DNA of 64,000 nucleotides from Patescibacteria group bacterium (GTDB taxonomy: Bacteria > Patescibacteriota > Microgenomatia > Levybacterales > UBA12049). The notes below the pieces were generated by a model. It saw only the letters and a list, made by a program, of their open reading frames with translations, searched no databases and had not been told where the DNA came from. Made by a program: the position numbers and the translations under genes. Below are positions 20,609-64,000 of the stretch, piece after piece (within the stretch, counting starts at the first letter, position 1; every line of letters begins with the position of its first letter). Location: assembly GCA_038064195.1 (NCBI GenBank), contig JBBTTO010000002.1, positions 402,387 through 466,386 of the forward strand, read 5' to 3'.

Positions 20609-20661
20609 GATCGTTCCTTTCGAAAAACAAATGAGCGAGAAAGGGAACGCCCCTATCTCTT

Positions 20662-20705
20662 TTTGCCCGACAGAAGAATAAATAATTACTCGCCTGTCGG
20701 GCAAA
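20662..20705. promoter_or_regulatory. perfect 12-bp inverted repeat (TTTGCCCGACAG ...20 nt... CTGTCGGGCAAA) in a divergent intergenic region
   Basis: Lies between the NUDIX gene (minus) and the CAP-domain gene (plus); a candidate operator or cruciform. Confidence 0.4.
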
Positions 20706-20918
20706 AGAGTGGGGTTTCTTTTCTTATATGCTTTGTCAACGTGCGTTGAGTCCAAAATAGACTCAACTATGCCAGAACTATAACAGATTACTATAGGTTT
20801 TTCAAGTTCGAACCATTAGATCGAATACGAAAATTGTTCGATCCAGGCACGAAGCAGAACAATAATTTCCTATATATTTGCATTTTTTGCGTATTTTTGC
20901 TACAGTCAAAACTTCGTA

Positions 20919-45930: not shown

Positions 45931-46383
45931 ATGAATAGTGCCCCCAAACATGAAAATATCGGTGCAGTTGTGATAGTTATTCATCCCGACGGAAATAAGA
46001 TTTTACTGGGAAAGCGAAAAAATAGTTATAAAGCAGGCTGGTTTGGTCTTCCGGGCGGCAGAGTCGACTATGACGAGTTACTTCCAACTGGAGCAGCCCG
46101 TGAGCTCCTAGAAGAGGCGGGATTAGTCCCTCAAGATTTGACGTATCTGGGCGTCGTTCGTGAACAGCAAGAGGTCTCACAATTTATTCATTTCGGGTTT
46201 GTGACTCATGTTTTTCAAGGAGAGCCGACCAATGTTGAACCGGACAAATGTGAAGGATGGGAGTGGTATGAGCTGGATAATTTACCTGATCCAATTCTCC
46301 CCGGACACAAGGGGATCATTGATATTTTTCTCTCTCCGGAGCAAGAAAATGTGAGAGACGTTTTATTACAAGAGAAATTATGA
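45931..46383 (+). CDS. NUDIX hydrolase
   Basis: Nudix box GGRVDYDELLPTGAARELLEEAGL. Confidence 0.75.
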   Translation: MNSAPKHENIGAVVIVIHPDGNKILLGKRKNSYKAGWFGLPGGRVDYDELLPTGAARELLEEAGLVPQDLTYLGVVREQQEVSQFIHFGFVTHVFQGEPTNVEPDKCEGWEWYELDNLPDPILPGHKGIIDIFLSPEQENVRDVLLQEKL

Positions 46384-46784
46384 AGAAAATACTTTTTATT
46401 TGTGCAGGGAATGTAGCCAGAAGTCAGATGGCTGAAGCTTTTTACAATTATTTTACTGACTCACTTGATGCCATAAGTGCGGGGGTATTGGATTTTACTC
46501 CTGCCAAATATGGCCATCCTATTCCTGAGGTTGTTGAGGTCATGCAGGAGGAGGGGATAGATGTTTCTCAAAAAAAAGTAAAAACTGTCACTGCCGGTAT
46601 GGTCAAAACTGTTGATGACATCTATGTTTTATGTCCCGAAGAAAAAGTTCCCGAATTCGTAACTGACAGAGGGAGTGTAATTTACTGGGAGATAAAAGAT
46701 CCCTTTGACAGTAGTACTGAAAACTTCCGTATGATCCGCGATGTGATCAAAGAGAAAGTCAAGAAAATAATTATTTTTCAGTGA
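46380..46784 (+). CDS. low-molecular-weight phosphotyrosine phosphatase / ArsC-like (LMWP family)
   Basis: CX5R P-loop ILFICAGNVARSQMAE at the N-terminus. Confidence 0.75.
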   Translation: MKKILFICAGNVARSQMAEAFYNYFTDSLDAISAGVLDFTPAKYGHPIPEVVEVMQEEGIDVSQKKVKTVTAGMVKTVDDIYVLCPEEKVPEFVTDRGSVIYWEIKDPFDSSTENFRMIRDVIKEKVKKIIIFQ

Positions 46785-46855
46785 CGCTAGCGGGAGTCGA
46801 ACCCGCGATCTTCAGAATGAGAATCTGACGTCCTAGACCACTAGACGATAGCGCC
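46782..46855 (-). tRNA. tRNA-Glu (anticodon CUC), 74 nt, CCA not encoded
   Basis: Reverse complement GGCGCTA-TC-GTCT-AGTGGTCTA-GGAC-G-TCAGA-TTCTCAT-TCTGA-AGATC-GCGGG-TTCGACT-CCCGC-TAGCGTC-A. The D-arm matches typical tRNA-Glu (TCGTCTAGTGGTCTAGGAC). Confidence 0.8.
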
Positions 46856-46906: not shown

Positions 46907-47698
46907 ATGTTATGCGTAATGTTGTATAATCTTTTAGTGAGTCAAATTACACTCTCAGTTATTATCCCTTCTTACAACGAGATGGCCAATCTCCGTAAAG
47001 GCGTTTTGGAGAAAGTCGATAGCTATCTCACCAAGAAAAAATATGCTTTCGAGGTGATAGTCGTTGATGACGGTTCGACAGACGGAGGAACTGAGTTCAT
47101 TCGTGAATTTGTTAAAGACCACAAAGAATTCCGCTTGCTTGAGAACGAGCATTTGGGGAAAGGCGGAGCAGTCACCGCCGGGATGTTGGCGGCACGGGGC
47201 AAATACCGGCTCTTTACTGACATGGATCAGGCTACTCCGATTGAGGAAGTCTCTAAATTGCTACCACTTTTTGAGGATAAAGCAGATGTCGTTATTGGTT
47301 CACGCTCCACACGCCGTCAGGGATCGCCCCTGATTCGCCGTTTTATCTCCCGTGCGCAAATTATTTTGCGTAAAATGATTATCGGATTGCCGGGTATTTC
47401 AGATACACAGTGCGGCTTTAAGATGTTTAGAGGAGAGGTGGCAGAGCAGCTATTTACAGCCGTCAAAAAAATTCACAAAGGGTTTAAGACCATTCATGGC
47501 TCCAATGTGACATCGGGGTTTGATATTGAACTGTTGTATTTAGCTTCGAAGATGGGTTATAGCATCAAAGAAGTCCCCGTTGAGTGGCTCTATGTCGAGA
47601 CCAGACGTGTCAATCCTGTGACTGACTCAATTCAGGGAGTTATGGATCTAGTGACGATCAAAAAAAATGCTATTGATGGCGTATACAGCAAAGTATGA
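46907..47698 (+). CDS. GT2 polyprenyl-phosphate sugar synthase (Dpm1/GtrB-like)
   Basis: SVIIPSYNEMANL...VIVVDDGSTDGG...TDMDQATP. Confidence 0.75.
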   Translation: MLCVMLYNLLVSQITLSVIIPSYNEMANLRKGVLEKVDSYLTKKKYAFEVIVVDDGSTDGGTEFIREFVKDHKEFRLLENEHLGKGGAVTAGMLAARGKYRLFTDMDQATPIEEVSKLLPLFEDKADVVIGSRSTRRQGSPLIRRFISRAQIILRKMIIGLPGISDTQCGFKMFRGEVAEQLFTAVKKIHKGFKTIHGSNVTSGFDIELLYLASKMGYSIKEVPVEWLYVETRRVNPVTDSIQGVMDLVTIKKNAIDGVYSKV

Positions 47699-48900
47699 CG
47701 ACTCAAGTCCGATCTCGTTTTCTTACCTCCAAAATATGGGTTTTTCTTACTTCACTGTCTGTCCTCTGTCTCTTTTTCTATTCTTTTGTTCAGGTTGATT
47801 TAGGTCTGACTCTGACTCGTACCTCCGTCATTACCACAATTCAACGTTCCTTTCAGTACATCGGCTATTTTGATCGTCCGCTTTCGACTTATTTATATGT
47901 GGGTATTCTTATTTTACTCTTTCTCAGCTATGGCTTAGCATTGTGGTTGGCAGCTAAGGGGAAGTTAGAACGTAAATTGGTCTGGAAGGTCATCATTATT
48001 ATGACCATTATTTTAGCTTTGAGTTACAACGCCTTTTCCTATGATCTCTTTAACTATATCTTTGACGCCAGGATTCTGACTCACTATCATCTCAATCCGT
48101 ATGAGTACAAAGCGCTAGATTTCCCCGCAGACAAGATGCTCGGGTTTATGCACTGGACACATCGTACCTATCCATATGGTCCTGCCTGGCTTATCCTGAC
48201 TGTTCCGTTGTCATTTGTCGGTATGGGTCTTTTTATTCCAACGCTTATTTTATTCAAATTACTGATGGGTGGATTTTTTCTCGTCGCACTTTTCTATCTT
48301 GAAAAAATCCTCAATAAAGTCTCGCCCAAAGATGCTACTCTGGGCCTCGTCTTTTTTGCTTTTAATCCTTTAGTCATTATTGAGTCACTTGTTTCGGCTC
48401 ACAATGATATTGTCATGTTCTCAATTGTTTTAATGAGTATTTATTTTTTAGTCAGCAAGCGGTATCTTTTTGCTTTTTGTTTATTGCTTCTTTCAGTTGG
48501 TATCAAATTTGCGACCGGATTGCTCCTGCCGCTTTTTATTATTATTGTGTTGTTTGAGCGCAAAAAAGTTCCGGTGAAGTGGGGCCAGATTTTTCCTATT
48601 TTTACTTTGACTATGGTTATCGGTCTGGTGGCAGCGACAATGCGTACTAATTTTCAGCCATGGTATTTGCTCTATCTTTTGCCTTTTGCCGCCTTGACAC
48701 CGAGAAAATATTATTTGGTTATTCCGGGTATTATTTTATCGTTTGCCGCTCTTTTAAATTATGTTCCTTTTCTTTTCACAGGCAATTGGGATCCGCCCAT
48801 CCCCTCAATTTTATTTCAGATAAATATAGTGGGTATTGTCATTTCAATACTTCTTTTAGGTTTACTATTTTTCAAAACACATCTTTCTAAAAAAGGTTAA
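47695..48900 (+). CDS. polytopic membrane protein, GT-C-fold glycosyltransferase-like (DUF2029/PMT_2-like)
   Basis: More than 10 TM helices; acidic loop motif YDLFNYIFDARI after the first TM pair. Confidence 0.4.
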   Translation: MTTQVRSRFLTSKIWVFLTSLSVLCLFFYSFVQVDLGLTLTRTSVITTIQRSFQYIGYFDRPLSTYLYVGILILLFLSYGLALWLAAKGKLERKLVWKVIIIMTIILALSYNAFSYDLFNYIFDARILTHYHLNPYEYKALDFPADKMLGFMHWTHRTYPYGPAWLILTVPLSFVGMGLFIPTLILFKLLMGGFFLVALFYLEKILNKVSPKDATLGLVFFAFNPLVIIESLVSAHNDIVMFSIVLMSIYFLVSKRYLFAFCLLLLSVGIKFATGLLLPLFIIIVLFERKKVPVKWGQIFPIFTLTMVIGLVAATMRTNFQPWYLLYLLPFAALTPRKYYLVIPGIILSFAALLNYVPFLFTGNWDPPIPSILFQINIVGIVISILLLGLLFFKTHLSKKG

Positions 48901-48944
48901 TCAATTTGGTCAGTAGTTAGCAGTCAGAAGTTAGGTGTTAAAAT

Positions 48945-50033
48945 ATGCGTAAATTTATTTGGATAACTCTTCTAAGTATTGTTTTTCTTCATTTAGGCTT
49001 TAGGATTATTCAGTATTGGCCGCGTTACATACAGGATTTAGATGGTGAGTACTGGAAAGACCGCTACTTTCAGTCCCAGTGGGTCGTGACTGATTCCAAA
49101 AATCCGATCGGGGACGATGGCCTCTATGCTTATCATGGCTATGAGCTTGTCCTTGGCGGGGATCCGACAGTGATCAATCCCGAGGTTCCGCCACTTGGCA
49201 AATATCTCATCGGTCTATGTGTCCTTGTTTTTCGTAACAATAATATCTTCGGTCTTTTTACCGGACTGTTTTGTCTTTTGACGTTTTATTTTTTTAACAG
49301 GCAGCTTTTCAAAGACAGATTGCTTGCCTTTTTCCCGGTTGCTCTTTTTTCACTCGATCCGTTGTTTTATTCACAGCTGCAGGCATCATTTCTGGACACA
49401 TTATATCTCTCTTTCCTTTTTCTGACGTTTTTGTTTTTCCTGCGAAAGAAATTTTTTATCGCGATGATATTTTTGGGCTGTTTTGCCTCAGTCAAATTCT
49501 CAGCTTTAGCAATTTTTGTCATCGCTACCTGTTTGGTTTATTTATTACTTCAGAAGAGGCGAGCGGATATTATCCGTTTTATCCCAAACTTAATTATGGT
49601 TCCTGTTGTTATTCTTCTGAGTTACTCTCGTTATTTTTTACTCGGGCATTCACTTAGTGACTTTCTAAAAGTTGAGAAATATATCGTGGTTTTTTATGCG
49701 ACTGGTGCTAAAGCTCGTGTTTTTGCTATGGCCATACCGATGCTCCTTATTAATAAGTGGTATACCTGGTGGGACGGAGTTCTGCGCATTCCTGAATGGA
49801 CTGTACTGTGGCCGGTCAGTCTTATTTCCGCTTGCTTTACAGCATTTATACTCAGACCTAAGTCTCCGTTTTATCTTTGTCTGATCTGGTCGTTTGCTTA
49901 TCTTGTCTTTCTCTCACTCACACCTGTTTATCCCCGCTATTTGCTTCTGCTTCTGCCTTTCCTTTATAATTTGCTCATATGGGCTTTGTCACAAAATACA
50001 AAAGTGAAATCCTCTTTTCGCTTGGTATCGTAG
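48945..50033 (+). CDS. GT-C membrane glycosyltransferase-like (PMT_2/GT39-like)
   Basis: First extracytoplasmic loop DDGLYAYHGYELVLGGDP...NPEVPPLGKYLIGL resembles the PMT/ArnT D-E...HPPLxK signature. Confidence 0.5.
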   Translation: MRKFIWITLLSIVFLHLGFRIIQYWPRYIQDLDGEYWKDRYFQSQWVVTDSKNPIGDDGLYAYHGYELVLGGDPTVINPEVPPLGKYLIGLCVLVFRNNNIFGLFTGLFCLLTFYFFNRQLFKDRLLAFFPVALFSLDPLFYSQLQASFLDTLYLSFLFLTFLFFLRKKFFIAMIFLGCFASVKFSALAIFVIATCLVYLLLQKRRADIIRFIPNLIMVPVVILLSYSRYFLLGHSLSDFLKVEKYIVVFYATGAKARVFAMAIPMLLINKWYTWWDGVLRIPEWTVLWPVSLISACFTAFILRPKSPFYLCLIWSFAYLVFLSLTPVYPRYLLLLLPFLYNLLIWALSQNTKVKSSFRLVS

Positions 50034-51493
50034 CCCTTTTTCTCCTCCTCAGGCTGCCGACTCTGACTCAGCTTCCGATCTTTACCGATGAGGCAATTTA
50101 TCTCAGGTGGGCACAAATTGCTCTTCAGGATGCCGGTTGGCGTTTTATCTCACTCACCGATGGGAAGCAGCCGCTTTTTATCTGGGCAGTTATTGTCTCT
50201 ATGAAATTTTTAAAAGATCCGCTTGTGGCCGGGAGAATTGTCTCAAGTGGTGCCGGACTGTTGACGATGCTCGGCCTTTTTTTCTTAGGTCGTGAGGTTT
50301 TCAAAAATAGATGGGTAGGTATAGTGAGTGCCGCTCTTTACTGTATTTTCCCATTTGCTTTGGTTTATGACAGGATGGCGCTCTATGATAGCCTGGTCGG
50401 TACTTTTGCTGTCTGGGGATTATATATGACCTTTTTGTTATTTCGTCGGCCCACGCTTGATAAAGCGCTCCTGATGGGATTTGTGACAGGTGCTGCAGCT
50501 CTTAACAAAACCAATGGATTTTTTACGATTTATCTGCTGCCTTTTGCTGCTATTCTTTTTGACTTCAAAGACAAACTTTGGCAAAAGAAATTCATTCGTC
50601 TTGTTGGCCTATCTTTGCTCGTTGTTGTAATGACGTATGGCTTTTACTCAATCCTTCGTCTATCACCATTTTTTTATATCATCAAACAAAAAAACGCTAT
50701 CTTTTTCTATCCCCTTGGGGAGTGGATTCATCATCCCTTTATGAGTGTTCTCTCCAATTTTTCAGCCTTTGCTGATTGGTTTATGCGTTATGTCGGACTT
50801 CCACTGAGCTTGACAGCCCTGGCCGGATTGATAATTGACAAAAAATTTTGGCGTGAGAAAGTCCTTCTTTTGCTCTGGTTTCTGCTTCCCTTTATCGGTT
50901 TTGCCTTTATCGGAAAGACTGTTTATCCCCGCTATATTTTCCCGATGACCCTCACGCTTCTACCCTTGACCGCGTATACCATTGTGAAATTACAGGAGAA
51001 AATTTCACGCAGCAAATGGATCCTGGTTGTCATCCTTGTCCTGGGCTATTCGGTTCTGACAGACTTTCTTATTATTTATAATTTCGCGGGTTCCCCAGTC
51101 CCGAATGCCGATAAAGGGCAGTACTTGACCGCATGGCCTGCCGGGGTTGGGGTAAAAGAAGCTACTGATTATTTCCGGATGCAGGCAGCATCCCGTCCGG
51201 TTTATATAGCAACCGAGGGTACCTTCGGTCTGTTGCCTTATGCTTTTGAGCTTTATTTGGTCAACAATCCTAACGTCACCATTAAAGGGTTTTGGCCGAT
51301 TAAGAGTCAACCCCCTCAAGAACTCTTGGATGCAGCCAAAAAGCAGGATACCTATATTGTTTTCTATCAGGATTGTCCTGTCTGTAGTGGGGTAGGGGTG
51401 GCGCCGAGTACCTGGCCGCTTCAGAAAATCATGCAGCTGAAGCGTATTGAAGCAGGCTCGTATTTTACTCTCTATAAAGTTATAGCACCATGA
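49979..51493 (+). CDS. GT39/GT83 (ArnT/PMT)-like lipid-carrier-dependent glycosyltransferase
   Basis: LPIFTDEAIYLRWAQIAL matches the FxxDEARYA motif; polytopic. The 5' end overlaps the upstream gene by 55 nt, so the start is uncertain. Confidence 0.6.
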   Translation: MGFVTKYKSEILFSLGIVALFLLLRLPTLTQLPIFTDEAIYLRWAQIALQDAGWRFISLTDGKQPLFIWAVIVSMKFLKDPLVAGRIVSSGAGLLTMLGLFFLGREVFKNRWVGIVSAALYCIFPFALVYDRMALYDSLVGTFAVWGLYMTFLLFRRPTLDKALLMGFVTGAAALNKTNGFFTIYLLPFAAILFDFKDKLWQKKFIRLVGLSLLVVVMTYGFYSILRLSPFFYIIKQKNAIFFYPLGEWIHHPFMSVLSNFSAFADWFMRYVGLPLSLTALAGLIIDKKFWREKVLLLLWFLLPFIGFAFIGKTVYPRYIFPMTLTLLPLTAYTIVKLQEKISRSKWILVVILVLGYSVLTDFLIIYNFAGSPVPNADKGQYLTAWPAGVGVKEATDYFRMQAASRPVYIATEGTFGLLPYAFELYLVNNPNVTIKGFWPIKSQPPQELLDAAKKQDTYIVFYQDCPVCSGVGVAPSTWPLQKIMQLKRIEAGSYFTLYKVIAP

Positions 51494-53889
51494 AAAGGTT
51501 TTCCCTCCTACCTGTTAGCCTTCTTTTACTTATTATCCTTGTCTTTTTCTACCCGATTTTTAAAGGCTGGATCCCTTTCCCGGGAGATTTAGTAGTTAGC
51601 ACCCCACCATACAGTACGCAATCCTTCCTGGGGTATGCACCGGGTGGCGTTCCTAATAAAGCCCAAGGACCTGATGTTATCAGGGAGTCAATGCCTTGGA
51701 AATTCTTTGCTATAACGAGTTTTAAAAAAGGCGAGATTCCTTTTTGGACGCCCTACAATTTTTCGGGCAATCCCCTCATGGCCAATTTTCAGAGCGCTGT
51801 CTTTTATCCGCTTAATGCTATTTTCTTTAGTTTTCCCTTTTTGAGTGCCTGGACGATTTTTATTACCCTTTCACCTTTGTTGTCTGGGTTATTTACCTAC
51901 TTCTTTTTGCGTTCACGTAATCTGTCTACTGTAGCAAGTCTTTTTGGTGGTGTTGTATTTGCTTTTTCCTCATATATGGTTGTCTGGCTTGAGTGGGGGA
52001 ATATCACCCATACCCTGTTGTGGTTGCCTTTAGCCCTTTTCTTTACCGAAAAGTATCGTACCAAAGCCAAGTGGCAGTATCTGTTGGCGCTGGTCGGTTC
52101 GCTGTGGCTGTCTTTTTTGGCAGGCTATATTCAGGAGTTTTTTTATCTCATCATTGTTGTGGCTCTCTATTATTTCGCCTTTGAATTTGGTCTCCTCAAA
52201 AAGTCTCTGCCTAAAGCAGGTATTTTTCTGATCTCTCTTATTTTTCCGGTATTGTTATCGTTATTCCAGCTTTTACCGACATTATCTCTGCTTGCTATCT
52301 CATCTCGTAACAGTTATTCGCTCACACAAATAACGGCCCTCCTTAATCCCTGGTGGTATGCCATAACGATTTTTATTCCTGATTTTTTTGGCAATCCTGC
52401 CGCTCGCAATTTTTGGTTTGTCGGTACGTATATTGAGAGAGTCTCATATTTCGGGGTGATACCGTTCTTACTGGCCGCAACTGCTCTCTTTAGCAAAAGA
52501 AAAGATGTGATGATTTTCTCCTCCATTTTTGCAGTTTGCCTTCTACTCTCACTTGACGTATTCGGAGTCAAATATCTTTACCTTCTGCCTCTGCCGATGC
52601 TCTCGACCACCGTCCCTACCCGAATATTGGGCATTCTTTGTTTTAGTGGCGCGGTGCTGAGTGCTTATGGGCTGGACGCATTGAGGGAAGGGATTTCAAG
52701 GAAGCGTTTTTTTCTGTCAATCCTGCTTGGCGGATTTTTACTCAGTATTGCCTGGGTGTTTGTTTTTTTCGGTTCTCATTTTTTTACGAAAATTTCACCT
52801 GAAAGCTTTGCGGTTACCAGACACAACCTCATCATTCCCACTTTCTTGAGTTTTATTTTTGTGGTTGCAGTTGTGATTCGCTTCAGTACGCTGTTTCGCA
52901 AAATTCCCAGGGCTGCAACCCTTCTTGTTATCTGTCTTTTTGTTATTACACTCGGAGATCTTTTTTATTTTTTCCATAAAATTACTCCCTTCGCACCGCG
53001 TGAATTTGTCTATCCGAGGACACCGGTTATTTCGTACTTACGAGAACACGCAGGTATTAACAGATTCTGGGGATATGGTTCAGCCTACATCAGCAGTAAC
53101 TTCCAGACCTATGACAAGACATTCTCACCCGAGGGGGATGATCCTCTTCATACTAAAATTTATAGCGAATTCATTGCCGCCTCAAATGACGGCAAGTTGC
53201 CGGTAGTAGCATCCCGTCTGGATGCCAATATTAAAGGGGGCTATGGCCCCACAGACCTGAGGAGTAATTTCTATCGTGAGCGGGTCATGGCGATCCTGGG
53301 TGTCAAATATATCCTGAACAAGAATGATTCACTGGGGAGTGAGCAGGATCCTGATACGGGAACTTTCCCCCATGAGAAATATCGCCTTGTCTGGCAGCAG
53401 GCACCCTGGCAAGTCTATGAAAATCTATCAGTTATTCCCAGAGCTTTTCTTACAAACGACTACCGCGTGATCTCAGATCCACAGTCAGCACTTAGCACGT
53501 TATTCAAGCCTGATTTTGATCTTGAGAAGACAATTGTTCTTGATCAGGATCCGCATCTGTCGAAAGGATCCTTGACGAGAAAATCCGTCAAGGTTGTCAG
53601 TTATCAGCCAAATCAGGTTGTGATAGAGACGGTATCAAATGCTGATGCCCTGCTTTTTTTATCGGATACCTATACACCTGACTGGACAGTTACAATTGAT
53701 AGCAGAAATGCTACAGTATATAGAGCTGATTATGCCTTTCGGGCGGTACCAATAACAAAGGGGCAGCATACAGTAATTTTTTCTTATTACCCGGCATCAT
53801 TTGACATGGGACTCAGGGTAAGTATCGGCTCATTTATCGTTATGGTTATAGGACTGGTCATCGCAAAAAAGAGAAAAATACTTGTCTGA
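51490..53889 (+). CDS. YfhO-like large membrane protein (lipid-linked glycan transferase candidate)
   Basis: 799 aa with about 14 TM helices and a C-terminal soluble beta-rich domain ending in a final TM; the layout resembles the YfhO family. Confidence 0.45.
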   Translation: MKRFSLLPVSLLLLIILVFFYPIFKGWIPFPGDLVVSTPPYSTQSFLGYAPGGVPNKAQGPDVIRESMPWKFFAITSFKKGEIPFWTPYNFSGNPLMANFQSAVFYPLNAIFFSFPFLSAWTIFITLSPLLSGLFTYFFLRSRNLSTVASLFGGVVFAFSSYMVVWLEWGNITHTLLWLPLALFFTEKYRTKAKWQYLLALVGSLWLSFLAGYIQEFFYLIIVVALYYFAFEFGLLKKSLPKAGIFLISLIFPVLLSLFQLLPTLSLLAISSRNSYSLTQITALLNPWWYAITIFIPDFFGNPAARNFWFVGTYIERVSYFGVIPFLLAATALFSKRKDVMIFSSIFAVCLLLSLDVFGVKYLYLLPLPMLSTTVPTRILGILCFSGAVLSAYGLDALREGISRKRFFLSILLGGFLLSIAWVFVFFGSHFFTKISPESFAVTRHNLIIPTFLSFIFVVAVVIRFSTLFRKIPRAATLLVICLFVITLGDLFYFFHKITPFAPREFVYPRTPVISYLREHAGINRFWGYGSAYISSNFQTYDKTFSPEGDDPLHTKIYSEFIAASNDGKLPVVASRLDANIKGGYGPTDLRSNFYRERVMAILGVKYILNKNDSLGSEQDPDTGTFPHEKYRLVWQQAPWQVYENLSVIPRAFLTNDYRVISDPQSALSTLFKPDFDLEKTIVLDQDPHLSKGSLTRKSVKVVSYQPNQVVIETVSNADALLFLSDTYTPDWTVTIDSRNATVYRADYAFRAVPITKGQHTVIFSYYPASFDMGLRVSIGSFIVMVIGLVIAKKRKILV

Positions 53890-57203: not shown

Positions 57204-58864
57204 TAAAAAAAATCTATCCCGGTTTATTGCTTATTGTTTATTGTTTACTGACCTCCTTGCCTGTCATCCTGCCTTATTTTCACCCGGGCTATTTCCCCAC
57301 ACATGACGGTGAATGGGCTGTAATACGATTAGGTGATATGTTCAGGAGTTTACGTGATCACCAATTTCCTGTGCGTTTCAGTGGCAACCTTAACTTTGGC
57401 TATGGCTATCCGCTATTTAACTTCACCTATCCTGCCCCTTATTACATCGGAGTTCTTTTTCATTTCCTCAAATTCGGCTTTGTCGATACGATTAAAATAC
57501 TCTTTGCCCTGAGCGTTGTCCTCTCCGCGATCGGGATGTTTTTGTTATCAGCCAGGCTTTGGGGTCATAAGATGGCAGGCTTCATTAGCGCATTTTTATA
57601 TGTTTATTTTCCCTACCGCATAGTGGATCTGTATGCACGGGGGTCAATTGGTGAATCACTTTCTTTTGCTCTCTTTCCGTTTGTTCTTTTTTTTCTTGAT
57701 AGGATTCTTTCGGGGAATAAGACATATTTATATGTAGCGCTCGGTTCACTGAGTTATGCGTTGCTTATTTTGACGCACAATATTATGGCAGTCCTTTTTA
57801 CCCCTGTTCTTATAGTTTTTATTTTTGGGAGGATGTATTTTGAAAAGTCCAAAAATTTTTTACCTCCTCTTGTTTTTATTACCCTCAGCTTTATCCTGTC
57901 CGCATTTTTTTGGTTACCGGCACTTGTTGAAAAAAACAGTATTCTTCTTTCCCGTATTCCCATAGCTGATAGGAGTATTTACTTTGTCAATCTGTCTCAG
58001 TTGATCATTCCTCGGTGGGGATATGGTCTGCCTGATCATCCGGACGGTTTTTCTTATCAAATCGGCTTGCCGCATATTATTATAGTTCTTACCGTCTTAG
58101 GTCTTTTACTTTATTTTTGGCAAGCCAGGAAAAAAGTTCTGACGAAATATCATTTTCAGTTGTCCGTTCTTTTACTTATTATAGTTGTGGCTTTTGTGTC
58201 TATGATGTTTTCTGTGAGTTCTCTGCTTTGGCAGGCTCCTCTGCTTAAAGAAATTAATTATCCTTGGACACTTCTTGGGCCTCTATGTTTTGTGATCAGT
58301 CTTCTGGCGGGGTTTCTTTGTTTGCAGCATAAGTTCATCAAATACCTCTCAGTTGTTCTCTGTGTTGTAGCTGGTATACTTATTCTGCCCAATGCCAGGC
58401 CGTCTTCGTATTTTGACAAGGGGGATAGTTATTATTTGACCAATGACGCGACGACGACCTCGTCGAGGGAGTTAATGCCTTTATGGGTCAAGACCCAGCC
58501 TTCTCTCCGCGTGGAGCAAAAGGTAGAAGTTATAAAAGGGGAGGGAAGTATCTCAAATAGTTTTGCTGATTCGCGTTTAATTACTTTTGTCGTTGATGCC
58601 AAAGACAAGATAACGCTGCGGATCAATACCATTTATTATCCGGGGTGGACTATACAAGCTAACGGAGTTGCTGTCCCGATTGATTATACGAACAGGCTTG
58701 GAGTTATGGATATCACTGTTCCCGTCGGGCGGCATGAGATTATCGCGAAGTTTGGGGAGACGCCATTGAGACTTACTGCCGATATCCTGTCGCTGGTTGG
58801 AATTATCATTGTCTTGTATCTGATTATAATGGATCGCTTCAAGATCAAATTTTTAAAATCATGA
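57200..58864 (+). CDS. polytopic membrane protein, GT-C/YfhO-related (PTPS-related membrane family-like)
   Basis: FHPGYFPTHDGEWAVIRLGDMFRSLRDHQFPVRFSGNLNFGYGYPLFNFTYPAPYYIG; C-terminal YYPGWTIQANGVAVPIDYTNRLGVMDITVPVGRHEI beta-domain followed by a final TM. Confidence 0.45.
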   Translation: MIKKIYPGLLLIVYCLLTSLPVILPYFHPGYFPTHDGEWAVIRLGDMFRSLRDHQFPVRFSGNLNFGYGYPLFNFTYPAPYYIGVLFHFLKFGFVDTIKILFALSVVLSAIGMFLLSARLWGHKMAGFISAFLYVYFPYRIVDLYARGSIGESLSFALFPFVLFFLDRILSGNKTYLYVALGSLSYALLILTHNIMAVLFTPVLIVFIFGRMYFEKSKNFLPPLVFITLSFILSAFFWLPALVEKNSILLSRIPIADRSIYFVNLSQLIIPRWGYGLPDHPDGFSYQIGLPHIIIVLTVLGLLLYFWQARKKVLTKYHFQLSVLLLIIVVAFVSMMFSVSSLLWQAPLLKEINYPWTLLGPLCFVISLLAGFLCLQHKFIKYLSVVLCVVAGILILPNARPSSYFDKGDSYYLTNDATTTSSRELMPLWVKTQPSLRVEQKVEVIKGEGSISNSFADSRLITFVVDAKDKITLRINTIYYPGWTIQANGVAVPIDYTNRLGVMDITVPVGRHEIIAKFGETPLRLTADILSLVGIIIVLYLIIMDRFKIKFLKS

Positions 58865-60534
58865 ATATAGCTAAAAAGATACTTCCTGTTGTTTCAATCC
58901 TTACTCTTTCCTTATTGGCTATCCAGCCTTTTTTTCATAAGGAGTTTTTCCCGATTCATGATGCCACGCAAGTAGCGCGTGTTTTTGAGATGCACCAGTC
59001 ACTCCAGGGCTTGATGTTTCCTGTTCGCTGGGTGCAGGATTTGGGCTATGGCTATGGCTATCCGATTTTTTCTTTTTATGCCCCTCTTGCGTATTATCTC
59101 GGAGCATTTTTTATGTTTCTCGGTTTTTCCGCTCTCCTTGCAACTAAAATAATGATTGCCCTTGGGGTGGTACTTGCCGGTGTGACTATGTATTTTTTTT
59201 CCAAGGAGCTTTTTGGCGAAAAAGCAGGTGTTCTTTCAGGAGTCCTTTATGTTTTTGCTCCTTATCATGCACTTAATATTTATGTCCGCGGCGCAATAGG
59301 CGAGGTATGGGCGTACGCTTTTATTCCCTTAGCATTCCTCGGCTTTTTGCAAATTGCCAAAAAGCCGACATGGATCTCTATTTCCTTGGCGGTAGGGGGA
59401 CTTGTCGGCATCATTATTTCTCATAACTTAACCGCTTTGATCGTGGCTCCTTTCCTCCTGGTCGAAATTGCTGTTTTATTTTTCCGTTTTCCCGGTAAGG
59501 CTTCCCGTAAGGGTCTATTGCTTGGGTTGATATTGTCTTTTTTAATCAGCAGCTGGTATACATTACCGGCAGTTTTTGAAATGGGGTATACCAATGTTGT
59601 CTCCCAAACCGGCGGAGGTTCTGATTATAAAGATCACTTTGTTTGCCCTTCGCAGTTATGGTCGAGTCAATGGGGATTTGGGGGTTCGACAAGCGGTTGT
59701 CTGGACGGTCTTTCATTTCAGATAGGGAAAATTCATATCTTACTGGCAGCTATCGGATTAAGTAGCGTATTATTTCTTAAACGCAAAAAAGAACGCAGAA
59801 TCGGATTACTCCTCGCGTTGGGAATACTCGTAGCAACTCTTATGGTGTTACCGGTGACCAAACCTCTCTGGGATACTCTCTCTTTTATGAAATATCTGCA
59901 ATTCCCTTGGCGTTTTCTGCAGATTGACCTTTTTTTCATCTCTCTTCTTGGTGGTTTTTCCGTCTTTCTTTTTGCTTTTATTGAGGAGCGTCTAAAAACA
60001 AAATACAGCGGAGTTGTTATCCTGAGTTTGACTATTACTATTCTCGGTATAGCTTTCTTCTACACCAAATTATTTCAGGCCCAGTTTTTCTATGATCCAT
60101 ATCCTGACCAAACAAAAAAATCGACATTGAATTGGGATATTTCCAGGATTTCTGACGAATATCTTCCTGCTACTTTTTCCAGGCCTCATTCCAGGGATGA
60201 AGTTCCGTCGCTGCCTTACCGGCCAACTGAGACTGCCAGTGTTGAGATTCTTGTAGATACACCTGGCCAGCTTATTTTATCTGTTAATGCTGTAGCTGAT
60301 AGTCATCTGATTTTGAATCGGGCATATTTTCCGGTGTGGCATATCACTCTCGATGGCCACCGTGCCTCCTACGCTATCGGGAACGGCTTGTATGATGTCG
60401 TTATTCCTGAGGGCAGTCACAACTTGACTGTAGTTTTTGAGCAAACCCCGCTTGAGCGGGTGAGTAATATTCTGTCACTGGTTGGCATTGTCCTGCTGGT
60501 TCTTGGTATACTATTGAGGAGATTTACTCTATAA
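58861..60534 (+). CDS. paralog of 57200-58864 (same membrane family)
   Basis: FFPIHDATQVARVFEMHQSLQGLMFPVRWVQDLGYGYGYPIFSFYAPLAYYLG; C-terminal AYFPVWHITLDGHRASYAIGNGLYDVVIPEGSHNL followed by a final TM. Confidence 0.45.
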   Translation: MNIAKKILPVVSILTLSLLAIQPFFHKEFFPIHDATQVARVFEMHQSLQGLMFPVRWVQDLGYGYGYPIFSFYAPLAYYLGAFFMFLGFSALLATKIMIALGVVLAGVTMYFFSKELFGEKAGVLSGVLYVFAPYHALNIYVRGAIGEVWAYAFIPLAFLGFLQIAKKPTWISISLAVGGLVGIIISHNLTALIVAPFLLVEIAVLFFRFPGKASRKGLLLGLILSFLISSWYTLPAVFEMGYTNVVSQTGGGSDYKDHFVCPSQLWSSQWGFGGSTSGCLDGLSFQIGKIHILLAAIGLSSVLFLKRKKERRIGLLLALGILVATLMVLPVTKPLWDTLSFMKYLQFPWRFLQIDLFFISLLGGFSVFLFAFIEERLKTKYSGVVILSLTITILGIAFFYTKLFQAQFFYDPYPDQTKKSTLNWDISRISDEYLPATFSRPHSRDEVPSLPYRPTETASVEILVDTPGQLILSVNAVADSHLILNRAYFPVWHITLDGHRASYAIGNGLYDVVIPEGSHNLTVVFEQTPLERVSNILSLVGIVLLVLGILLRRFTL

Positions 60535-60537
60535 CCC

Positions 60538-61257
60538 GTGACGAACGAACTTCCTGAATTATCAGTTTTTTTTCCATTCTGGAATGAAGAAAAAAACATC
60601 GACAAAGTCGTAACGATCGCACTTGCTATTTTGCCGGGTATCGCCAAAAAATACGAAGTGCTGCTTATCGATGACGGCTCACAGGATAATACCCGTGAGA
60701 AGGCTTGGGCTTTAGCTAGAGAGCACAAGTTCGTTAAAGTTATTTCCCACACTCCCAACCGCGGTTATGGTGCCGCACTTCGTTCAGGTTTTGATCACAG
60801 TCAGTATGAGTATGTTGTCTTTACCGATGGAGATCTGCAGTTTGATTTCGCACAAATCAGCAAATTTCTCGAGAAGATCATTGACGCAGATATCGTTATC
60901 GGCTTTCGTAAAAAAAGGCGGGACGAAAAAATATTTAAGCGATTACTCCTTATGAATTTATTGAAGATTTGGGATTTTATTCTTTTTGGATTTTATTTCC
61001 GGGATATCGATTGCGGATTTAAGATGTTTAAGAGATCAGCCCTTGAGCAAATTGCTCCTCTCAGGTCTGAGGGTGCTATGATCACGACTGAGATTCTGGC
61101 TAAAGCGACTAAGAAAAAGTTGAAAATTATTGAGGTAGGGGTTGATCATTTTCCACGACAATTTGGTAAGCAGACAGGAGCGAATCTCTTCGTTATTTTC
61201 CGGGCAGTCCTTGAAAGTCTGACACTTTTCTCAGATATTAAAAGTAAGAGGTTCTGA
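60538..61257 (+). CDS. GT2 polyprenyl-phosphate glycosyltransferase (Dpm1-like)
   Basis: SVFFPFWNEEKNI...LLIDDGSQDNT...FTDGDLQ. Confidence 0.75.
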   Translation: MTNELPELSVFFPFWNEEKNIDKVVTIALAILPGIAKKYEVLLIDDGSQDNTREKAWALAREHKFVKVISHTPNRGYGAALRSGFDHSQYEYVVFTDGDLQFDFAQISKFLEKIIDADIVIGFRKKRRDEKIFKRLLLMNLLKIWDFILFGFYFRDIDCGFKMFKRSALEQIAPLRSEGAMITTEILAKATKKKLKIIEVGVDHFPRQFGKQTGANLFVIFRAVLESLTLFSDIKSKRF

Positions 61258-61259
61258 TT

Positions 61260-62714
61260 ATGCAGGAAATCGATATTGCCACCATCAAACGCCGTTCAAT
61301 TAAAGGAGTCTTTTCTCTCGTCTCGCGTACTTTTTTGATTCAGCTGATCGGACAGATTGTCACTTTTTTACTGACAGTTTATCTCTCACCGGGTGATTAC
61401 GGACTTTTTTTCCTTGTTTCAACGGTTATTACTTTTCTGGCTTATTTTTCAGACATCGGTTTGGCGGCAGCTTTGATTCAAAAGAAAGAGGCACTCACAC
61501 AGGACGATCTGAGGACCACCTTTACTATCCAGCAGATTTTAGTTGTGATAGCAGTTATTCTGGGTCTTTTAGCCACACCGTTTGTAGCTAAGATATACGA
61601 TTTGAACGGTACAGGGGTAGTTTTATACCAGGCATTGGTTTTGGCTTTTTTTATCTCGTCTCTCAAGACTATTCCTTCAATTCTGCTTGAGCGCTCACTG
61701 CAATTTAATAAATTAGTTATTCCGGATATAGTCGAGACCCTGGGATTTAATATTATTGTCCTGGTTCTCGCTATTAAGGGGTTCGGGGTAGCAAGCTTTA
61801 CGTATGGAGTCGTTGCTCGGGGTCTGGCGGGACTGATTGCGGTTTATATAATCTCACCCTGGAGGCCCGCTCTTGGAATTAATAGATCGGTTGCCAAAAA
61901 ACTCCTTTCCTTCGGTGTCCCTTTCCAGATCAACTCGCTTTTAGCATTGGCTAAAGATAATCTATTTTTCCTTTATTTAGGCGCGGTTTTGCCCAAACCT
62001 GCTCTGGGATTTATTGGTGTAGCTCAGAAATGGGCATATATTCCATTAAGGGTTATTATGGATAATCTGATCCGGATTACGTTCCCCTCATTTTCAAGGC
62101 TTGCAGGTAACGCCGAGTATTTAGGCAAAGCTATTGAGAAGACGCTTTTCAGCACAGCTCTTTTTATCTTCCCTTCAATTGTCGGGATGATCATTCTCAT
62201 GCCTCATTTCATGACCATCTTTCCGAAGTATCAGAAGTGGGAACCGGCCGTCATGTCTCTCACCTTTTTTGGTATTAACGCCATTCTTTCCTCTATTTCA
62301 ACTCCGTTGACAAATGCTTTAAATGCTATCGGCAAGATCAAAACCACACTCTATCTGATGATTTTCTGGACGATTGCTACCTGGGTCCTGACTCCGATTG
62401 TGATTATGTCGTATGGCTTTAACGGTGTCGCTATCGCTTCAGCCATCATCTCACTGAGTGTGGTTCTCGTTATTTACCTTGTCAAAAAGCATATCAATTT
62501 TTCCATTATCACCGTTACTCTCTCACCGGCTATCGCGACAGCTATCATGGCTGTTGTTCTTTTAATTATCAGCCCCATTTTAGTCCATAATTTCCCGATG
62601 TTTTTTCTGACTATCTTTATCGGTGCGGTTGTTTATTTAGGTACCGTCTATCTCTTAGCACACGAGCTTATCCGATCTGATGTACAATTAATACTGGAGA
62701 ACCTGCGTAAATAA
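61260..62714 (+). CDS. Wzx-like oligosaccharide flippase (MOP/PST superfamily)
   Basis: 484 aa with about 14 TM helices and a polysaccharide-biosynthesis-protein N-terminal pattern. Confidence 0.7.
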   Translation: MQEIDIATIKRRSIKGVFSLVSRTFLIQLIGQIVTFLLTVYLSPGDYGLFFLVSTVITFLAYFSDIGLAAALIQKKEALTQDDLRTTFTIQQILVVIAVILGLLATPFVAKIYDLNGTGVVLYQALVLAFFISSLKTIPSILLERSLQFNKLVIPDIVETLGFNIIVLVLAIKGFGVASFTYGVVARGLAGLIAVYIISPWRPALGINRSVAKKLLSFGVPFQINSLLALAKDNLFFLYLGAVLPKPALGFIGVAQKWAYIPLRVIMDNLIRITFPSFSRLAGNAEYLGKAIEKTLFSTALFIFPSIVGMIILMPHFMTIFPKYQKWEPAVMSLTFFGINAILSSISTPLTNALNAIGKIKTTLYLMIFWTIATWVLTPIVIMSYGFNGVAIASAIISLSVVLVIYLVKKHINFSIITVTLSPAIATAIMAVVLLIISPILVHNFPMFFLTIFIGAVVYLGTVYLLAHELIRSDVQLILENLRK

Positions 62715-62716
62715 TC

Positions 62717-63637
62717 ATGAAACTCTCAGCTGTTATCTCAACCTACAATAGTGAAAAAGTCCTTAAAGATTGTCTTGAGTCACTCGATTTTGTCGACGAG
62801 ATAGTCGTGGTTGACCATACTTCACAGGATAATACTACTGCGCTGGCTAAAAAATATACCAAACATATTTTTGTTCAGCCAAATGATCCGACTCAAATCG
62901 ATCTCCAGAAGAATTTCGGTTTTGCCAAAGCTAAAGGTGACTGGATACTCTCAATTGATGCGGATGAAAGAGTCTCGCGGGAATTAGCTCAGGAAATTAA
63001 GAAAGCAATTGAAGATACCTCACCTGTTGCCTATAAAATTCCCCGTAAAAATATCATTTTTGGCAAATGGATAGAGCATTCTCTCTGGTGGCCTGACTAC
63101 CAGCTCAGACTTTTTCAAAAAGGAAAGGGTAAGTATGTCCATGTCAAAGTCCACCAGGACCTTCAGATTGACGGGCCGATAGGACAGCTTGAACAGCCTC
63201 TTATACATGAGAATTATCAGACCCTTTCTCAGTATTTGCAAAAAATGGATGTTTATACAGAGAATGAGGCTGAAAGTATGGTCCGCGAAAATGTTCATAT
63301 GTCCTGGATTGACGCGATCCGGCTACCTCTGTCTGACTTTCTTAAGACATTTTTCCTGCAGGCAGGCTATAAAGATGGGTTGCACGGACTTGTCTTAAGT
63401 ACTCTTCAGGCGTTCTATGCGTTTTTAGTCTTTACTAAAGTCTGGCAAAAGCAGGGCTTTCGTGAAGAGGCACAGGAACATATGATTAAGAAATTGCTTG
63501 AGGAATGGATGCGTGCGCAACACGAAATTTCTTACTGGTTTTTCTCATCTCTTATCAAAGACACCCGCAACCCGTTGACGAAGATAAAATATCATCTGCT
63601 TCGTAAGCGCGAAGCGTCTAAGCTTAAAAAAACATGA
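62717..63637 (+). CDS. glycosyltransferase family 2
   Basis: LSAVISTYNSEKVLKDCLESL...VVVDHTSQDNT...SIDADE. Confidence 0.75.
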   Translation: MKLSAVISTYNSEKVLKDCLESLDFVDEIVVVDHTSQDNTTALAKKYTKHIFVQPNDPTQIDLQKNFGFAKAKGDWILSIDADERVSRELAQEIKKAIEDTSPVAYKIPRKNIIFGKWIEHSLWWPDYQLRLFQKGKGKYVHVKVHQDLQIDGPIGQLEQPLIHENYQTLSQYLQKMDVYTENEAESMVRENVHMSWIDAIRLPLSDFLKTFFLQAGYKDGLHGLVLSTLQAFYAFLVFTKVWQKQGFREEAQEHMIKKLLEEWMRAQHEISYWFFSSLIKDTRNPLTKIKYHLLRKREASKLKKT

Positions 63638-64000
63638 AGCACGTCTTTATCTCAATTCTTGACTACAATCAAAAGGAGACTACTCTCACCTGCCTCGCAT
63701 CTATTGAGAAGCTCAATACAAGAGGTTTAAAAGTGAGTGTTATTGTTATTGACAACTATCCTAAGGGCAAATTAGAGATTGATACGTCCATTTACAAAAA
63801 TGTTTCAGTGACACTTAAAAAGACTCCTGACAATCTCGGTTTTTCGGGCGGACATAATGTCGGTATTGCCTACGCCTCGGAGCATAATGCCGATTTTGTT
63901 GTCGTTTTGAATAATGACGTAGTTGTGGATCCTGACTTAATTGTGAATTTAGTTAAGGCAGCAGGCGCATCAGATAAGATCGGAGCTGTTGTTCCCAAGA
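63634..64000 (+). CDS. glycosyltransferase family 2, 5' partial within window (continues past the end)
   Basis: MKHVFISILDYNQKETTLTCLASI...VIVIDNYPKG...VVVLNNDVVV; the ATG overlaps the upstream stop (ATGA). Confidence 0.7.
   Translation, partial: MKHVFISILDYNQKETTLTCLASIEKLNTRGLKVSVIVIDNYPKGKLEIDTSIYKNVSVTLKKTPDNLGFSGGHNVGIAYASEHNADFVVVLNNDVVVDPDLIVNLVKAAGASDKIGAVVPK

Follow-up and report, generated by a model that had tools for sequence, protein, structure and literature searches.

A conserved Microgenomates locus with eight contiguous GT-C-type membrane protein genes, a candidate system for assembling a cell-surface glycan

An array of membrane glycosyltransferase genes in a Levybacteria-related genome

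We analyzed a stretch of 64,000 nucleotides (referred to as the window) from contig JBBTTO010000002.1 of a Patescibacteria group bacterium and find that its last part, from position 46907 to the end at 64000, holds 13 open reading frames (ORFs), all on the plus strand, eight of which encode consecutive membrane proteins (M1 to M8) that we assign to the glycosyltransferases of the C-type fold (GT-C). They are accompanied by short family 2 glycosyltransferases (GT2) and a Wzx-type flippase. We read this locus, with a probability of roughly 0.55, as an expanded multi-component transmembrane glycosylation system following a logic like that of lipomannan (LM), lipoarabinomannan (LAM) and arabinogalactan assembly in mycobacteria; most likely, it serves to build up or elaborate, on the outer side of the membrane, a complex glycan of the cell surface. 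The acceptor that we favor would be a cell-wall or membrane-anchored glycopolymer, possibly one linked to peptidoglycan.

The source contig of this ultra-small bacterium measures 1,075,823 bp and stems from a 0.1-µm-filtered Hainich groundwater metagenome; the relatives of the source organism are Candidatus Levybacteria and other Microgenomates. The features of the locus are as follows, with functional designations given as predictions, protein lengths in amino acids (aa) and E-values of Pfam matches in brackets; core and accessory refer to the occurrence in related loci described below.

46781..46855, minus strand: tRNA-Glu (anticodon CTC; ARAGORN), upstream boundary of the locus, outside the operon
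46907..47698, plus strand: G1, short GT2 lacking a membrane domain at its C-terminus (Glycos_transf_2 7e-28), overlapping M1 by 4 bp
47695..48900, plus strand: M1, MptA/MptB-like GT-C, 401 aa, about 11 transmembrane (TM) helices, core
48945..50033, plus strand: M2, membrane-only GT-C with an ArnT-like core, 362 aa, accessory, in a minority of related loci
49979..51493, plus strand: M3, PMT_2-type GT-C, 504 aa, core (PMT_2 2.3e-10)
51490..53889, plus strand: M4, YfhO-family GT-C, 799 aa, accessory (YfhO PF09586 2.2e-27)
53882..55540, plus strand: M5, PMT_2-type GT-C, 552 aa, accessory (PMT_2 7.4e-6); gene callers start it at 53891, which gives 549 aa
55533..57203, plus strand: M6, PMT_2-type GT-C, 556 aa, accessory (PMT_2 3.5e-9)
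57200..58864, plus strand: M7, PTPS_related-type GT-C, 554 aa, core (PTPS_related 5.2e-6)
58861..60534, plus strand: M8, PTPS_related-type GT-C, 557 aa, core (PTPS_related 3.9e-8)
60538..61257, plus strand: G2, second short GT2, directly upstream of Wzx (Glycos_transf_2 9e-28)
61260..62714, plus strand: Wzx-type lipid-linked sugar flippase of the MOP family, 484 aa (Polysacc_synt_3 2.8e-46)
62717..63637, plus strand: G3, soluble GT2 without TM segment, 306 aa (Glycos_transf_2 5.7e-19)
63634..64000, plus strand: G4, soluble GT2, cut at the window end (Glycos_transf_2 4.7e-9 for the 122-aa fragment), 305 aa in the source contig

These coordinates and the gene order agree with an earlier note on this DNA, which had described the locus from the letters of the sequence. 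It had also placed the locus just downstream of tRNA-Glu, which is correct as to position, with 51 bp separating the tRNA from the start of G1, although the tRNA itself lies on the minus strand. The genes are joined mostly by overlaps of 4-8 bp or gaps of 2-3 bp, the exceptions being a gap of 44 bp between M1 and M2 and an overlap of 55 bp between M2 and M3, a spacing that matches the packing of co-translated operons. The coding strand is T-rich and its G+C content slightly below that of the remaining window, as expected since the genes encode membrane proteins.

The extent of 46907-64000 given by the earlier note holds for the start but not for the end, since at least 9.6 kb more of the locus follow in the source contig (stretch L065, 10918-20921), so that the window covers two-thirds of this large operon-like locus, counted from its start. 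In order, the downstream genes are:

G4, GT2, 305 aa
GT2, 252 aa
M9, PMT-type GT-C, 556 aa
M10, YfhO, 758 aa
DUF5652 protein, 79 aa, minus strand
GT4, 358 aa
M11, YfhO, 744 aa
GT2, 318 aa, running off the stretch

The whole locus thus holds at least 11 GT-C genes, at least seven GT2 genes, one GT4 and one Wzx gene, which together occupy at least 27 kb or some 2.5% of the contig; these totals are lower bounds, as the fetched stretch ends before the locus does.

M1 to M8 are predicted GT-C glycosyltransferases

Six of the eight membrane proteins match Pfam families of the GT-C type, namely PMT_2 (M3, M5 and M6), YfhO (M4) and PTPS_related (M7 and M8), while M1 and M2 gave no GT-C match in the direct Pfam scan and were placed by their likeness to MptA/MptB and by their fold, respectively. 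The GT-C clan CL0111 includes both PTPS_related and PMT_2, along with GT87 (PMC7801869). By hydropathy each of the eight proteins has 7-13 TM segments, and in every one of the families M1 to M8 an acidic residue in the first loop after TM1 is conserved in at least 90% of the orthologs (D35 in M1; D57 D58 in M2; D37 E38 in M3; D33 in M4; D37 E38 in M5; D38 E39 in M6; H35 D36 in M7; H33 D34 in M8). By its place in the sequence this residue corresponds to the hallmark position of GT-C catalysis. The earlier note had ascribed a D-E...PPLxK signature to several of the proteins; in its strict form it occurs in M2 only (D57 D58...E80-x-P-P-L-G-K86), while the D-E pair itself is found in M3, M5 and M6, with H-D in its place in M7 and M8 and G-D in M4.

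Comparison of ortholog profiles with hhalign joined all 11 GT-Cs of the locus in one network. The YfhO and PTPS_related proteins were linked at 98-99% (M4 with M7 and M8 at 98.8-98.9%), M3 was linked with M5 at 97.8%, with M6 at 96.9% and with M7 at 94.4%, M2 with M3 at 95.7% and with M5 at 94.3%, and M1 with M2 at 90%, while the Wzx profile, included as a negative control, stayed below 1% against every GT-C.

The individual proteins differ in how closely they can be placed. M1, with conserved D35, D117 and D124, aligns with NCBIfam TIGR03459 (alpha-1,6-mannopyranosyltransferase A) at 3.2e-15, its 56 bits standing against an equivalog cutoff of 439, and carries a precomputed match to PF26314 (MptA_B_family), so its likeness to MptA/MptB appears to hold at the level of the family and not of an equivalog; its family profile also finds GPI mannosyltransferase 1 (PIG-M) in the PDB (4e-7). 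For M2, in which D57 D58 and E80...K86 are invariant, an AlphaFold2 model built with 71 homologs (predicted local distance difference test, pLDDT, 94.9; predicted template modelling score, pTM, 0.93) shows a helical bundle. Its best Foldseek match in the PDB is ArnT (5ezm; E 5.9e-6, TM-score 0.64), and the next 29 are all GT-Cs, among them STT3/PglB, PIG-U, ALG9/12, PimE, Pmt4, AftB and Emb; as the model matches solely GT-C structures, M2 would be a minimal, membrane-only GT-C. M3 has invariant D37 E38 after TM1 and ends in a soluble domain of about 130 aa. M4 reaches 96.3 bits with YfhO PF09586 (cutoff 28.5), a family known in Firmicutes for the glycosylation of teichoic acids, conserves P31-G32-D33 and has a large extracytoplasmic C-terminal region (residues 500-770, non-membrane) followed by a terminal TM helix. 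The M5/M6 family profile has ArnT as its sole sequence match in the PDB (E 0.0034), and M6 conserves D55 E56 in addition to D38 E39. In the M7 model (pLDDT 87.6, pTM 0.89), a bundle of 11 TM helices is joined by a beta-sandwich on the extracytoplasmic side, spanning about residues 442-518, and by a TM anchor at the C-terminus; the model's top Foldseek match in the PDB is AglB (2.4e-5), followed by PglB, STT3, AftD, Pmt4, DPY19, Emb and ArnT, and H35 D36 are invariant among M7 orthologs, which occur in 59 genomes.

A reading of the proteins as transporters was rejected, matches of the models to major facilitator, ATP-binding cassette and G protein-coupled receptor structures having probabilities of at most 0.13 and TM-scores of at most 0.16. 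Domain matches, conserved first-loop acids, the profile network and the M2 and M7 models therefore all favor the GT-C assignment that the earlier note had proposed for M1 to M8.

Outside the window, the orthologs of the YfhO protein M10 (L065, 14211-16487) lack the first-loop Asp, having P-T-R-Q instead of P-G-D/P-T-D, and conserve D72. The Asp is kept in the YfhO paralogs M4 (D33) and M11 (D34), and M10 may be non-catalytic or use another residue.

Putative donor synthases and a flippase frame the array

Of the components flanking the GT-C genes, G1 and G2 are putative polyprenyl-phosphate-sugar synthases of the Dpm1/GtrB/ArnC kind, in keeping with the earlier note, which had named polyprenyl-phosphate-sugar GT2s on either side of the membrane proteins. 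The best solved relatives of G1 are Dol-P-Man synthase (5mlz, 1.5e-14), GtrB (5ekp, 1.6e-11) and ArnC (1.6e-10), and those of G2 are ArnC (1.2e-16), Dol-P-Man synthase (5mlz, 5.7e-14) and GtrB (5ekp, 1.7e-13). Among NCBIfam models, G1 aligns over its full length with dolichyl-phosphate hexose transferase and PpgS, and G2 with PgfS (4e-21), AglJ (1e-20), ArnC (6e-19) and, over its full length, PpgS, all of these scores lying below the equivalog cutoffs. Neither protein has a C-terminal TM helix, in which they resemble GacI or eukaryotic DPM1. From the adjacency of these genes we infer that M1 to M8 would use polyprenyl-phosphate-sugar donors. Orthologs of G1 precede M1 in related loci as well, and because the two genes overlap and the relatives of both (Dol-P-Man synthase on the one hand, MptA/B and PIG-M on the other) use polyprenyl-phosphate mannose, it is reasonable, if unproven, to regard G1 and M1 as a candidate mannose pair.

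The flippase of the MOP family, which had likewise been recognized before, aligns with the NCBIfam models MOP flippase (1.9e-32), O-glycosylation flippase (5.6e-33) and TuaB (1e-26), below the equivalog cutoff in each case. Two non-orthologous kinds of GT2 take the place just upstream of Wzx, one in 29 loci and the other in 13 (window 60538-62714 versus L006-L064). Identity to the Wzx of the window averages 52.2% where Wzx stands next to a G2 ortholog (n=29) and 41.5% next to the other GT2 type (n=13), kinship not being corrected for, whereas identity of M7 (48.9 versus 49.1) and M8 (39.6 versus 40.5) does not differ between the two groups. This suggests that the flippase may be adapted to what the neighboring synthase makes, by analogy with GacI/GacK, for which such a synthase-flippase pairing was proposed in Streptococcus pyogenes (review PMC8035078).

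Soluble transferases are encoded by G3 and G4 and, farther downstream, by G5, GT4 and G6; G3 is probably a cytoplasmic enzyme that acts on a lipid-linked intermediate. The DUF5652 protein (L065, 16478-16717, minus strand), which has two TM segments, is the sole minus-strand gene inside the locus; its homologs are found in 21 related loci, kept at the same place after the third soluble GT2. As a speculation based on analogy, it could be a GacJ/DPM3-like membrane partner of the anchor-less GT2 synthases.

The array combines several GT-C lineages with old duplications

The GT-Cs of the locus fall into five or six lineages, comprising an MptA/B-like protein (M1), a minimal ArnT-like protein (M2), PMT_2 type A (M3), PMT_2 type B (M5, M6 and M9), YfhO (M4, M10 and M11) and PTPS_related (M7 and M8). 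Within these, M5 and M6 are 30.6% and M7 and M8 32.1% identical over their full length; M6 shares 32.7% with M9, the three proteins M5, M6 and M9 being mutually 30-33% identical, and the YfhO proteins share 29-34% (M4 shares 33% with both M10 and M11). The C-terminal domain of M8 is locally similar to that of the YfhO protein M4 (30% over 86 aa, E 5e-7). Among the GT2s, G1 and G2 are 31.5% and G3 and G5 34% identical. The pairs at 53882/55533 and 57200/58861, which had been described as obvious tandem paralogs, are thus real and full-length but old and not recent duplicates; M7 and M8 orthologs both occur in Levy-, Roizman- and Gottesmanbacteria, so that their duplication predates these lineages. 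To the question posed in the earlier note, whether the array arose by duplication or by assembly of different families, the answer is therefore both, different GT-C families being combined with ancient duplications.

An array of this density could in principle be a collapsed or chimeric assembly of repeats, or consist of misclassified transporters. We found nothing in favor of this beyond the missing direct Pfam matches of M1 and M2, and we give it next to no credence. The paralogs are no more than about 30-33% identical; no DNA repeat longer than 31 nt was found between 46000 and 64000, the short matches being at chance level or due to conserved paralog motifs; identical copies of M4 and G3 were found on 17 and 22 independent contigs, respectively, from several samples, one of them 1.08 Mb long; and dozens of further genomes show this gene order again, so that an assembly artefact was excluded. 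Misclassification is countered by the M2 and M7 models, which match GT-C folds only, and by the Wzx control, which aligns to none of the GT-Cs.

A conserved core with modular variation across Microgenomates

The locus is conserved across Levy-, Roizman- and Gottesmanbacteria, with the recurring order G1-M1-M3-M7-M8-GT2-Wzx-GT2-GT2-GT2-(DUF5652)-GT4-YfhO. M1, M3, M7 and M8 form its core, M3 being present in nearly all related loci, while M2, M4, M5 and M6 are accessory; the exact order M1 to M8 was found in three other species-level genomes. Counting the GT-C genes from M1 to Wzx in the 35 Microgenomates loci that contain both gave the following distribution.

3 GT-C genes: 1 locus
4 GT-C genes: 13 loci
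5 GT-C genes: 4 loci
6 GT-C genes: 4 loci
7 GT-C genes: 7 loci
8 GT-C genes: 6 loci

The Lon and superoxide dismutase (SOD) genes flanking the locus are conserved in other Levybacteria, which argues for vertical inheritance and against a mobile island; a tRNA-associated genomic island was rejected on this ground and on that of the class-level conservation. In Gottesmanbacteria (L062, 552-6481 and 14040-16195) the locus contains in addition a UDP-glucose dehydrogenase, four epimerase/dehydratase genes of the short-chain dehydrogenase/reductase family, a GT2 fused to a GtrA/DPMS membrane domain and an extra PMT_2 GT-C. This set suggests a module for a uronic-acid-derived or pentose sugar in that lineage and is of the textbook three-component kind, which reinforces the type of pathway. 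Many public records of metagenome-assembled genomes with the locus (L010, L012, L013, L016, L019 and others) are titled 'uncultured Gammaproteobacteria bacterium'; as gene content and best matches are Levybacteria-like, these titles look like a placeholder or wrong taxonomy.

The variable gene content bears on a reading in which each GT-C independently attaches one decorating sugar to a backbone polymer that other parts of the genome provide, teichoic-acid-like or of the Wzx/Wzy type, so that the locus would be a stack of CsbB/GtcA/YfhO or Gtr systems whose variation creates antigenic or phage-receptor diversity. In Firmicutes, YfhO and PMT_2-type GT-Cs are characterized as decorating enzymes (PMC5836110; PMC8035078), and decoration would agree with a GT-C number that varies from 3 to 8 between genomes, with the exchangeable type of the GT2 adjoining Wzx and with the fact that neither a polymerase nor an initiating transferase was found in the locus. 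Stacked three-component systems, however, normally have one GT2 per GT-C, where here two synthases stand against eight GT-Cs; the fixed order of four core GT-Cs over class-level divergence suits a conserved structure better; the family of M1 comprises chain-extending mannosyltransferases; and fusions of two GT-Cs occur. We therefore regard decoration as the sole function as unlikely.

Fusion relatives hint at a shared pathway and at the cell wall

Relatives of M2 provide further context. A profile of the M2 family yielded 713 representatives at E <= 1e-10. Among the best 150, roughly half have a length of about 690 aa and carry, C-terminal to the GT-C core, MecA_N and PBP_dimer, which in class B penicillin-binding proteins (PBPs) make up the pedestal; the transpeptidase is missing from them. 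These fusions (L067, 10001-12070; P0258, P0263, also P0271, P0287 and many others) lie between DUF5652 and the GT4/YfhO pair in a homologous locus, and we know of no description of such a GT-C/PBP-pedestal architecture. Going by its domains, it hints at the cell wall as the site of action. Other relatives, of about 930 aa, are fusions of a PTPS_related GT-C of the M7/M8 type with a GT-C of the M2/PMT_2 type (P0255, P0265; L068, L069 10001-12787), and their locus carries four YfhO genes, Wzx and GT2s. Both kinds of fusion thus sit in loci of the M1-M8 kind, and the fusion of two GT-Cs argues that these enzymes act in one pathway.

Taken further, Microgenomates, with genomes of about 1 Mb, might carry out the greater part of the assembly of a complex envelope glycan beyond the membrane, by means of up to 11 or more GT-Cs. 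This strategy, resembling that for lipomannan and arabinogalactan, would have arisen independently of Actinobacteria and may be physically coupled to peptidoglycan synthesis, as the GT-C core fused to a MecA_N and PBP_dimer pedestal suggests. We put this forward tentatively, as a possibility to which we lean less than to the glycan-assembly system in its general form.

A possible course of glycan assembly and what weighs against it

With GT-Cs, Dpm1/GtrB/ArnC-like GT2s and Wzx side by side, the locus agrees with the lipid-carrier-dependent glycosylation outside the cytoplasmic membrane that had been proposed for it. The analysis shows the gene content, the GT-C fold and motifs, the homology of the donor synthases, the synteny and the modular variation. 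The course that we infer, including the donor sugars, the direction and order of the steps, the flippase substrate and the acceptor, would start on the cytoplasmic face, where G1 and G2 would charge polyprenyl phosphate with two different monosaccharides, that of G1 probably being mannose or another hexose, and where G3, G4 and the downstream soluble GT2s and GT4 may build a lipid-linked primer oligosaccharide. The MOP/Wzx protein would translocate the lipid-linked sugar or sugars, a role that has been proposed for the GacK protein of Streptococcus pyogenes. Across the membrane, on its outer face, the eight GT-Cs (at least 11 in the whole locus) would use their first-loop Asp/Glu to transfer sugars from the polyprenyl-phosphate donor to the growing envelope glycan, each being responsible for one given linkage or branch, much as MptA/MptB/MptC/Aft/Emb are in mycobacteria; the core proteins M1, M3, M7 and M8 would make the basic structure and the variable M2, M4, M5 and M6 lineage-specific elaborations.

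Several points weigh against this assembly reading. No initiating phosphoglycosyl transferase of the WecA/WbaP type, no Wzy, no LytR-CpsA-Psr (LCP) ligase and no GtrA-type flippase were found in the window and the 9.6 kb downstream, which leaves the primer and the attachment step unaccounted for; in terms of a Wzx/Wzy-dependent pathway, the locus contains Wzx with neither the initiating transferase nor Wzy. When initiating transferase, Wzy, LCP ligase, UppS and GtrA were sought in the other 47 kb of the window, only housekeeping and peptidoglycan-trimming genes and one extra GT2 came to light. In the window, eight GT-Cs would have to share no more than two donor synthases, and nothing in the locus singles out the sugars or the acceptor. 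Sequence similarity to any characterized GT-C is very low, at superfamily level only, and sequence-profile searches of the PDB returned nothing for the M2, M3 and M7/M8 profiles or for M4 alone. The figures for the co-variation of Wzx and GT2 carry no phylogenetic correction. Finally, promoter and terminator scans of the locus stayed at the level of shuffled controls, so that the case for a single operon is made by gene packing only.

Secreted proteins as alternative acceptors

The GT-Cs might instead transfer sugars to Ser/Thr residues of secreted or surface proteins such as S-layer proteins, pilins or Thr/Pro-rich proteins, the paralogs differing in substrate or extending an O-glycan, which would resemble the actinobacterial Pmt or the Streptococcus mutans Pgf system. 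PMT_2 matches of M3, M5 and M6, the precomputed match of the downstream M9 to PMT PF02366 and the weak NCBIfam likeness between G2 and PgfS, between M4 and PgfM1/PgfM2 and between Wzx and the 'O-glycosylation flippase' point in this direction, as do secreted proteins with Thr/Pro-rich linkers encoded in the window (20919-21800 and 17585-18226). The matches are, however, far under the cutoffs (PgfM1 28.5 versus 1400 bits; flippase 115 versus 720 bits), PMT_2 is a generic domain of the ArnT/PMT type, and known protein O-mannosylation takes one GT-C and not 8-11 from five families. PMT PF02366 itself does not match M3 or M5 and reaches 16.5 bits in M6 (cutoff 22.7), in the wrong part of the protein, and Pfam finds no MIR domain in the proteins of the window. 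Moreover, the MptA/B-like M1, the set of GT2s and GT4, the beta-sandwich ectodomain and the PBP-pedestal fusions favor glycan or wall acceptors.

The suggestion of the earlier note that the system might be protein O-mannosylation-like is accordingly not favored, as no protein in the window reaches the PMT PF02366 threshold and the matches are to the generic PMT_2/ArnT type; O-glycosylation of proteins as the main function strikes us as improbable. Glycan assembly is preferred on account of the number and diversity of the GT-Cs, the cytoplasmic GT2s and GT4, Wzx, the beta-sandwich ectodomain and the PBP-pedestal relatives.

The two secreted proteins are a 213-aa protein (17585-18226, minus strand) with 31% Ser/Thr/Pro and a weak FecR match, and a CAP-domain protein with Thr/Pro linkers (20919-21800). 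They would be possible substrates if O-glycosylation were the function after all; inspection of the Thr/Pro-rich secreted proteins of the window as acceptors revealed nothing that ties them to the locus.

Carrier-lipid and cell-wall genes elsewhere in the window

The earlier note had connected the locus with a PAP2 and DgkA pair (8362-9332), 38 kb away. DgkA (8955-9332) is a strong match (1e-34), while the PAP2 protein at 8362-8958 stays below the Pfam threshold (25.7 versus 27.2 bits), and the link to the locus is mere proximity within 64 kb. Gram-positive DgkA homologs are undecaprenol kinases, an activity that would suit the recycling of a carrier lipid.

Five further genes upstream of the locus are related to the cell wall, without established link to it: a DD-carboxypeptidase (S11; 4858-5865), a stand-alone GT2 of 236 aa (13013-13723), a beta-lactamase-family protein (13772-14761), a GH18 glycosidase (16337-17506) and an LD-carboxypeptidase (S66; 18619-19608). 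Three clear NUDIX hydrolase genes lie at 15796-16242, 28876-29355 and 45931-46383, with a possible fourth, weak one at 19892-20755; the gene at 45931-46383 is directly upstream of the locus beside a low-molecular-weight phosphotyrosine phosphatase (46380-46784), the 3' end of which overlaps tRNA-Glu by 4 nt.

Significance for the biology of Patescibacteria

The candidate phyla radiation (CPR) bacteria, or Patescibacteria, make up a large share of bacterial diversity and are mostly uncultured and host-attached, and their surface chemistry is essentially undescribed. That a genome of about 1.08 Mb gives at least 27 kb (about 2.5%) to one conserved glycosylation operon indicates that the glycan is important for its biology. 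The component types of the locus are known, while its scale and composition are new, and a literature search found no description of this locus or of GT-C arrays in CPR. Protein families enriched in Microgenomates were described as mostly hypothetical and often membrane-localized (Méheust et al., 2019; PMC6744442). If the locus is indeed an assembly line, its glycan would count as a major constituent of the surface of these episymbionts, one not described before, and the lineage-specific modules would set host or phage specificity.

The locus offers concrete targets in its donor synthases, its flippase and its GT-Cs with an identifiable, predicted catalytic Asp. It also provides material for GT-C enzymology, namely a membrane-only GT-C of 362 aa, a PTPS_related protein with a beta-sandwich ectodomain, and fusions of GT-C with GT-C and with a PBP pedestal.

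Comparison with known systems

The earlier note had stated that the array could not be mapped to a characterized pathway, which is a fair description, as the type of pathway is known but its composition is not matched by any characterized system. We know of no characterized system with eight contiguous GT-C genes, or with eleven in one locus.

The ArnC/ArnT system for lipid A aminoarabinose shares with the locus ArnC as the best solved relative of G2, and ArnT, which is matched by M2 in fold and by M5/M6 in sequence. In contrast to it, the locus has no ArnA/B/D or ArnE/F genes, M2 is without the periplasmic domain of ArnT, and the source organism belongs to the CPR, for which the lack of a Gram-negative envelope has been reported (PMC6744442).

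With PMT (GT39) and the Streptococcus mutans Pgf system the locus has in common the first-loop DE of M3, M5 and M6, the PMT_2 matches and the weak similarity to PgfS, PgfM1 and PgfM2; it differs from them in that no protein in the window attains the PMT PF02366 threshold or carries a MIR domain by Pfam. The number and diversity of its GT-Cs exceed those of any protein O-glycosylation system known to us.

The three-component systems CsbB/GtcA/YfhO, GtlA/GtlB and GacI/GacJ/GacK/GacL, the last from Streptococcus pyogenes (PMC8035078, PMC5836110), likewise consist of a GT2 donor synthase, a flippase and a GT-C with a first-loop Asp, and YfhO and PMT_2 domains are common to both. The Gac system is especially similar, having a GT2 without a membrane domain of its own and an adjacent Wzx-type flippase. 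These systems, however, work with one GT2 and one GT-C, which place a single decorating sugar on a polymer produced elsewhere, whereas here two synthases go with eight GT-Cs (at least 11 in all) of five families, there is no GtrA-type flippase, and the sequences score far below the cutoff of every curated family.

The assembly of LM, LAM and arabinogalactan in mycobacteria and corynebacteria (Ppm1, PimE, MptA-C, EmbA-C, AftA-D) resembles the locus in that many GT-Cs act sequentially on one glycan outside the membrane, with Dpm1-like GT2s providing one or two polyprenyl-phosphate sugars as donors. M1, a relative of the MptA/MptB family, directly follows a Dpm1-like GT2, and the Foldseek matches include PimE, AftB, AftD and Emb. 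Genes for a lipid anchor of the phosphatidylinositol mannoside (PIM) type or for the decaprenyl-phospho-arabinose pathway were not seen at the locus, and the homology is at superfamily level only. In mycobacteria the GT-C genes are scattered, with at most three of them adjacent (embCAB), whereas the genome considered here, about four times smaller, has its GT-C genes in a single contiguous array.

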